A DNA stretch of 5,162 nucleotides, taken from IMG/VR virus record IMGVR_UViG_3300029517_000134, positions 1-5,162 of that record. One strand, written 5' to 3'. The notes below the pieces were generated by a model. The model did not search any database, was not told the origin of the DNA, and saw nothing but the letters and a program-made list of their open reading frames with translations. This DNA comes from a virus. Lineage: Duplodnaviria; Heunggongvirae; Uroviricota; Caudoviricetes. Shown here in pieces: positions 1 to 230 of the stretch. Positions within the stretch are counted from its first letter, which is position 1; every line of letters starts with the position of its first letter. Made by a program: the position numbers and the translations under genes.

Positions 1-80
1 TGGTAGTCTTAGTAAGCGGGGAAGCTTATGACTAAGAGCACCACGATGATGAGTAGCTTCATCATGACCCTTTCCTTATT
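1..80 (+). ncRNA. Putative Sib-like antisense RNA (antitoxin) opposite the Ibs-like ORF; 5' end probably outside the window, 3' end approximate
   Basis: Inferred from family knowledge: ibs ORFs lie wholly within oppositely oriented sib sRNA genes. Possible 3' hairpin ATGATGAG/CTTCATCAT at about 46-65 followed by a U-rich stretch (ACCCTTTCCTTATT, 66-79). No promoter is visible inside the window. Boundaries are guesses. Confidence 0.25.
9..65 (-). CDS. Ibs-family type I toxin-like mini-ORF, 18 aa (MMKLLIIVVLLVISFPAY)
   Basis: Hand translation of the minus strand: ATG ATG at 60-65 (plus-strand 'catcat'), stop TAA at 9-11. Strong SD AAGGAAAGGG (revcomp of 66-80) about 5 nt upstream of the first ATG. 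Peptide pattern (MMK, then a pure L/I/V stretch, then SF-P-A-Y at the end) matches my recollection of E. coli IbsA-E toxins (18-19 aa). Too small for the ORF track. Not verified by search. Confidence 0.6.
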   Translation of the reverse strand: MMKLLIIVVLLVISFPAY

Positions 81-230
81 AAAGGATGACAAATAATATA
101 AATCACTTAAAAATCATCGCATTACACGAATCCGCGATTAAATAATAGACTGCAAAATGCGACAAAACTCAACATATGCAGTCACTACGAATCAACTATT
201 TAGATAGTATTAGTGACCTGAGACAGAGTA

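Follow-up and report, generated by a model that had tools for sequence, protein, structure and literature searches.

The first bases of the window (the whole 5,162-nucleotide stretch of viral DNA analyzed here) hold a very small minus-strand ORF with its Shine-Dalgarno region and, on the opposite strand, most of an antisense RNA gene. Phage DNA follows, with an attachment-site arm, a hairpin element, nleA, an NleG-family effector gene and tail-fiber genes (Table 1). Between 2890 and 3720, RefSeq lists pseudogene fragments only, yet a 180-aa ORF (2956..3498, minus strand) is open there; it has no Pfam match.

Table 1. Features of the window and the attachment-site sequences compared with it (positions are those of the window unless another genome is named)
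Feature	Position	Strand	Description or basis
SibB antitoxin RNA gene	1..80	plus	nt +28 to +107 of the 136-nt K-12 SibB; Rfam RF00113, K-12 identity
ibsB ORF	9..65	minus	18 codons plus stop; translation, K-12 identity, RefSeq annotation
ibsB Shine-Dalgarno region	69..78	minus	AAGGAAAGGG, read directly from the sequence
7-bp overlap (crossover)	74..80		CCTTATT; common to attB, attR and attL; last host-identical stretch; SibB nt +101 to +107
attB	K-12		ACCCTTT-CCTTATT-TATGG
attR	window		ACCCTTT-CCTTATT-AAAGG
attL	ECO2947		CAACTTA-CCTTATT-TAAGG
P arm of HK022-type attP, phage DNA	81..217	plus	HK022 attP homology (X51962, AF069308); no K-12 homology
Phage sib/tI element	218..279	plus	12-bp-stem hairpin at 230..266, then UUUUUUG; extended outer stem
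nleA, 413 aa	686-1927	plus	RefSeq name; no Pfam match
NleG-family effector	2266-2826	minus	PF06416, E = 3.9e-45
Short tail-fiber C-terminal protein	3719-3988	minus	
Tail-fiber gene with collagen repeats, running off the window	3990-5162	minus	

The ibsB toxin gene and the sibB antisense RNA gene

The minus strand across the small ORF, ATGATGAAGCTACTCATCATCGTGGTGCTCTTAGTCATAAGCTTCCCCGCTTACTAA, translates to MMKLLIIVVLLVISFPAY followed by a stop. This peptide is 100% identical to IbsB of E. coli K-12 (b4668), which the K-12 annotation labels a "putative toxic peptide", and the ORF carries the RefSeq name "type I toxin-antitoxin system Ibs family toxin" (WP_001386899.1) in every genome listed. 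It has the traits of the Ibs family: a length of 18-19 aa, a hydrophobic composition, an MMK or MMR start, a core of L, I and V without interruption, and SFxxY at the end. The AGGA of the Shine-Dalgarno region lies 7 nt upstream of the first ATG. The original prediction of a minus-strand, 18-codon toxin ORF with a good ribosome-binding site, forming part of an Ibs/Sib-type type I toxin-antitoxin pair, is borne out, the peptide being identical to IbsB and the DNA scoring above the gathering threshold of the Rfam Sib model.

That model, SIB_RNA (RF00113), matches the plus strand of bases 1..80 with a score of 80.2 bits (gathering score 56; E = 2.8e-15; model positions 65-147), spanning both the ORF and the Shine-Dalgarno region, and it is the sole above-threshold Rfam match across the whole window. 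The same 80 bases are 100% identical, base for base, to K-12 2153673..2153752. With K-12 SibB annotated at 2153646..2153781, base 1 of the window corresponds to nt +28 of the RNA and base 80 to nt +107 of 136. An antisense RNA had been expected on the plus strand across the ORF and its ribosome-binding site, with a 5´ end beyond the window, and this is the arrangement found: the Rfam match is flagged as cut at the 5´ side by the window edge, and the sibB promoter and the first 27 nt lie to the left. The 74 nt that precede the window in near-identical genomes are the same as in K-12, including TTGACA. On this evidence of identity, the feature is the known ibsB/sibB pair of E. coli, beyond a merely Ibs-like one.

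Native SibB is an abundant antisense RNA that pairs with the ibsB mRNA over the coding sequence as well as the ribosome-binding site; translation of the small toxic membrane peptide is thereby blocked, and breakdown of its mRNA is set off. The pair has reportedly been characterized since 2008, and a paper of that year by Fozo and coworkers is said to be the primary one on Ibs and Sib. As a toxin-antitoxin system, then, the locus is nothing new, being already known and annotated in RefSeq. Start-site and domain information for the family comes from Han et al., 2010 (PMC2943612) and a 2014 review. The complement of the ibsB Shine-Dalgarno region is the part of SibB that matches TRD2 of SibC, a domain defined in SibC (PMC2943612) and assigned to SibB by homology. 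In the predicted fold, SibB nt +101 to +107 are single-stranded (J1/7).

Both genes are incomplete on the right-hand side. The 3´ end of K-12 sibB is annotated 29 nt past the point where identity breaks, and the 29 nt lost, TATGGCCCCTTCCTCGGGAGGGGCTTTCC, make up the SibB terminator hairpin. In the family, this hairpin (P7) directly follows J1/7; after base 80, its K-12 form, GGCCCCTTCCTCGGGAGGGGC, is lacking. An Ibs gene, to judge from the ibsC and ibsD start sites (PMC2943612), has its own promoter and a 5´ UTR of ~65 nt that starts beyond the Sib terminator, and here the native sequence upstream of the ATG is down to 15 nt. The missing upstream region is an interruption of a true family member and no argument against Ibs membership. 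The ibsB ORF and its Shine-Dalgarno region are undamaged in all of the genomes examined that carry the junction described below.

The interruption is easily overlooked. The Rfam SIB_RNA model spans the promoter -35 box to CCUUAUU and does not include the terminator. In the lysogen ECO2947, both tandem copies fit the full model (149.5 and 142 bits), and because the model ends before the terminator, the prophage-split sibB locus is scored as a full-length match (model positions 1-147, 142 bits) and the split is invisible. Model-based RNA annotation should therefore be read with caution, as it reports a split sibB as intact.

Prophage junction and attachment sites

When K-12 is aligned with two lysogens, identity is perfect to base 80 (...CATCATGACCCTTTCCTTATT) and similarity is nil afterwards. 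The same 7-bp overlap stands in attB, attR and attL, and the site is empty in K-12. In ECO2947, an intact prophage of ~50 kb extends from ibsB to xis-int, with mdtA next. The sequence at its integrase end is ...ATATGCAACTTA-CCTTATT-TAAGGCCCCTTCCTCGGGAGGGGCTTTCCCG... and runs on into mdtA, and the SibB terminator hairpin, GGCCCCTTCCTCGGGAGGGGCTTT, adjoins mdtA at this end. Within the window, bases 80..272 show 91.8% identity to the attP region that phage HK022 shares with the related mEp235. The arms are thus homologous to a characterized attP, and a cognate tyrosine integrase and excisionase lie at the other end, which is outside the window and was seen in ECO2947: the integrase there matches HK022 Int at 95% identity across all 357 residues, with xis upstream, and the P´ arm is conserved between ECO2947 and HK022 up to the core-type site CAACTTA.

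HK022 attP reads CAACTTA-TTCACCT-AAAGGATGAC and that of the nleA phage CAACTTA-CCTTATT-AAAGGATGAC, so the two differ solely in the 7-bp overlap. The HK022 insertion site lies between torS and torT (PMC6814406), and HK022 Int is able to use any overlap sequence if both partners are identical (PMC7736782). Since the overlap is free as long as the partners match, a changed overlap is enough to explain a changed target. A plain HK022-site prophage was rejected, the HK022 site being torS/torT with a TTCACCT overlap. The end of an Stx1a phage in the same alignment does show the HK022-site junction, AACCTTT-TTCACCT-AAAGG.

As read from these alignments, the prophage is integrated inside sibB, with bases 1..80 forming the host half of attR and base 81 onward the phage P arm. 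That the junction falls inside the sibB gene goes a step beyond the original prediction, which took bases 1-130 as a whole for an Ibs/Sib locus; this assignment stands for 1..80, whereas 81..130 is phage attP-arm DNA. The left boundary of the nleA prophage is fixed at base 80/81 of the window, which is useful for annotation. The window itself is identical to the genome of AMSHJX01 up to base 2069, where a 1-nt indel follows.

The sibB-phage junction is present in 46 of 5,426 complete E. coli genomes. A 78-nt query centered on the overlap was used for the empty attB, and it was confounded by Sib paralogues, with a median of 3 places per genome; it gave partial-only matches in 26 genomes although 46 carry the junction, so only the 46 positive junctions are reported. 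In 12 genomes, this phage end adjoins rpnC at its 3´ end. K-12 rpnC reads GGTAATTAA-CCTTATT-TAAGTTAC at that point, and this recurrence of the overlap supports the att model. To judge from the shared overlap and the occupied copies, this HK022-type integrase has its second attachment site at the rpnC 3´ end, and the rpnC-joined copies indicate that the phage arm would have no specific adaptation to the ibs/sib locus. One such copy, with P arm, nleA, NleG and tail-fiber genes, lies at rpnC (yadD) in NZ_CP148440.1 (positions 2961-3070 of the region compared), where K-12 has AATTAA-CCTTATT-TAAGTTA. K-12 sibA also contains a candidate site, ACCCTTT-CCTTATT-AAAAGCC, whose overlap and left core are those of the sibB site; no occupied example was seen.

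Two relatives differ at the integrase end. In AMSHJX01 (NZ_CP030939.1), the prophage that begins at ibsB ends with its integrase beside ybhC, on the lambda att side, and in 2013C-3342 (NZ_CP027766.1) it ends beside yccA. These ends look like the products of megabase inversions between two lambdoid prophages; ECO2947 is uninverted and ends at mdtA. Given the inversions in these two relatives, excision may be impossible in the source strain. A literature search for a prophage at ibsB, sibB, yegL or mdtA returned nothing relevant, which is no proof of novelty. We found no published description of an HK022-type integrase with a CCTTATT overlap that uses sibB or the rpnC 3´ end as its target, and we regard these sites as a modest extension of HK022 and lambda att biology.

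The surroundings of the locus also settle what kind of DNA the toxin-antitoxin pair belongs to. In K-12, the order is yegL-sibA/ibsA-sibB/ibsB-mdtA, with no prophage, and ibsB/sibB is the second of two tandem pairs between yegL and mdtA. Genomes that are identical or nearly so over the first 400 bases of the window have the order dgcE-alkA-yegD-yegI-pphC-yegL-ibsA-ibsB, followed by nleA, the NleG-family gene, tail-fiber genes and the rest of a lambdoid prophage. The search to the left for a second tandem copy, which had been suggested, located ibsA/sibA ~330 bp outside the window.

That the small ORF is a chance product of AT-rich intergenic DNA has virtually nothing to recommend it: the window does hold 75 ORFs of at least 20 aa in a mechanical ORF list, but exact identity to a characterized gene family member and a covariance-model E value of 2.8e-15 led us to reject this reading. 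The pair might instead belong to the prophage and travel with the nleA cargo as a stabilizing or phage-defense module. Whether it was such cargo or backbone flanking the prophage had been left open, and the cargo half of that question can be closed almost completely. The module's position directly beside nleA is the sole point in its favor. Prophage-free K-12 has the identical 80 bases in the same place, in the order yegL-ibsA-ibsB-mdtA, and homology breaks at 80/81, which refutes the cargo alternative. In addition, ~5,225 of the 5,426 genomes match the region and just 46 have the phage junction, phage records match solely from base 80 on, and the same phage end lies beside rpnC without any ibs gene. 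With K-12 synteny as the guide, ibsB/sibB is chromosomal backbone and no part of the prophage, and the effector cargo carries no type I module of its own.

Predicted effects on the toxin and the antitoxin

Integration leaves the SibB body (nt 1-107) intact, as it does the promoter in near-identical genomes, and displaces the SibB terminator to the mdtA side, ~50 kb away. The position of the ibsB promoter can be approached through the paralogues. Start sites have been mapped for ibsC and ibsD, with the ibsC mRNA starting 18 nt beyond the SibC 3´ end (PMC2943612). The alignment of all five K-12 loci extends through and past the terminator, in support of start-site homology between ibsB and ibsC/ibsD, which would place the ibsB start at about SibB coordinate +154. 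By this homology, the ibsB promoter and ~47 nt of its 5´ UTR would also be on the far, mdtA side of the prophage. The toxin gene would then be transcriptionally orphaned and is probably silent in the lysogen.

Promoter predictions add little to this picture. The K-12 candidates for -10 and -35 elements upstream of ibsA and ibsB look weak, and the number of promoter-like matches is close to the shuffled expectation (4 versus 4.2 expected in bases 1..700, and 15 versus 9.9 in the whole window), a chance level that makes them uninformative. Transcription of ibsB could still arise from a cryptic promoter within the phage arm or by read-through out of the late genes of the phage.

On the antitoxin side, SibB transcription would run into the phage arm and end at the phage tI/sib element, giving a chimeric RNA of ~295 nt. 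This element is the first intrinsic terminator downstream of the shortened sibB, lying ~140 nt beyond the end of the gene, with the terminator itself, a strong plus-strand hairpin at 230..272, ~190 nt downstream. It folds at -28.2 kcal/mol (z-score -4.0; 0 of 200 shuffles fold as well) and aligns with the "sib transcription processing site" annotated in the HK022 record X51962. The terminator scan missed the tI hairpin owing to a loop-size limit, and the region was folded directly. The phage element "sib" and the host RNA SibB share their name by coincidence only. In the chimera, the SibB body is predicted to fold as before. SibC(1-78) continues to repress ibsC when joined to a foreign terminator, and TRD1 by itself is enough (PMC2943612). 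The chimeric SibB keeps the equivalent of SibC TRD1 and, given the sufficiency of that domain, should still act as an antitoxin and neutralize any ibsB transcript.

With toxin transcription disarmed and the antitoxin promoter kept, the insertion would be harmless, which would explain why it is tolerated and fits its occurrence in 46 of 5,426 genomes. Precise excision would restore the wild-type locus, ...CCCTTTCCTTATTTA(T/A)GGCCCC.... Taken as a whole, the explanation that a backbone ibsB/sibB pair serves as attB of the nleA prophage, leaving ibsB orphaned and SibB chimeric, is one we consider very probable. Integration at sibB splits the toxin ORF from its inferred promoter and the antitoxin RNA from its terminator, and these genomes thus offer a natural test of what portion of a Sib RNA its function requires.

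The pair could also be thought to keep its full toxin-antitoxin function in the lysogen, with the phage arm providing both an ibsB promoter and a SibB terminator, in the manner of phages that rebuild tRNA or small-RNA genes. The phage does supply a terminator ~190 nt downstream, the ibsB ORF and Shine-Dalgarno region are undamaged in every junction genome examined, and an outward-reading promoter of HK022 takes over a neighboring host gene, though from the other arm, P´ (PMC6814406). We nonetheless think a rebuilt pair improbable. Bases 81..130 have no similarity to the displaced host sequence, so nothing has been rebuilt; the minus strand of 81..352 has no promoter-like site, and the 9/12 match at 380..353 occurs at chance frequency; and the same phage arm is also joined to rpnC, which indicates no adaptation to ibsB. 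There is about as little reason to expect that integration has rewired the locus, such that Q-antiterminated late transcription could cross attR into ibsB and couple IbsB to induction, while chimeric SibB would silence ibsB in uninduced cells and the displaced SibB terminator would insulate mdtA from the P´-arm promoter. The ibsB ORF with its intact ribosome-binding site does lie downstream of the prophage late operon (tail-fiber and NleG genes), on the same strand, and late-gene read-through into ibsB during induction is conceivable; in HK022, the P´-arm promoter drives a host neighbor (PMC6814406). At the integrase end of the ECO2947 prophage (positions 3130-3215 of the region compared, outside the window), the P´ arm is directed at the displaced SibB terminator, located 5 nt past the overlap, and the orphaned ibsB promoter region faces back into int. 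The preferred reading is still that of an orphaned ibsB with a chimeric, antitoxin-competent SibB.

Comparison with known systems

Compared with K-12 ibsB/sibB (b4668/b4437), the locus has the same 18-aa peptide, the same DNA over SibB nt +28 to +107, the same position in the order yegL-ibsA-ibsB and the same antisense layout over the ORF and ribosome-binding site. It differs in being cut after SibB nt +107, with the terminator and the inferred ibsB promoter and 5´ UTR parted from it by the prophage. Prophages in small-RNA or tRNA genes, such as those at ssrA and at tRNA 3´ ends, likewise use an RNA gene as attB and cross over near its 3´ end. Such phages bring a copy of the 3´ end that they displace and restore the gene, whereas the arm at sibB is without similarity to the SibB terminator.

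The recombination module (Int, attP and sib/tI) is that of HK022 in most respects: the integrase shows 95% identity, the P and P´ arms show about 90-92%, including CAACTTA, the sib/tI element is shared, and the BOB´/POP´ architecture has the same 7-bp overlap length. The overlap is CCTTATT instead of TTCACCT, and the targets are accordingly sibB (46 genomes) or the rpnC 3´ end (12 genomes) and not torS-torT; the phage body is that of a lambda-like nleA/NleG effector phage and not of HK022. As in lambda, the sib/tI element is a hairpin with a U-run and an extended outer stem, just beyond attP on the strand of the int transcript. Here, in contrast to lambda, it lies downstream of a strongly transcribed host small-RNA gene, for which it probably serves as a surrogate terminator.
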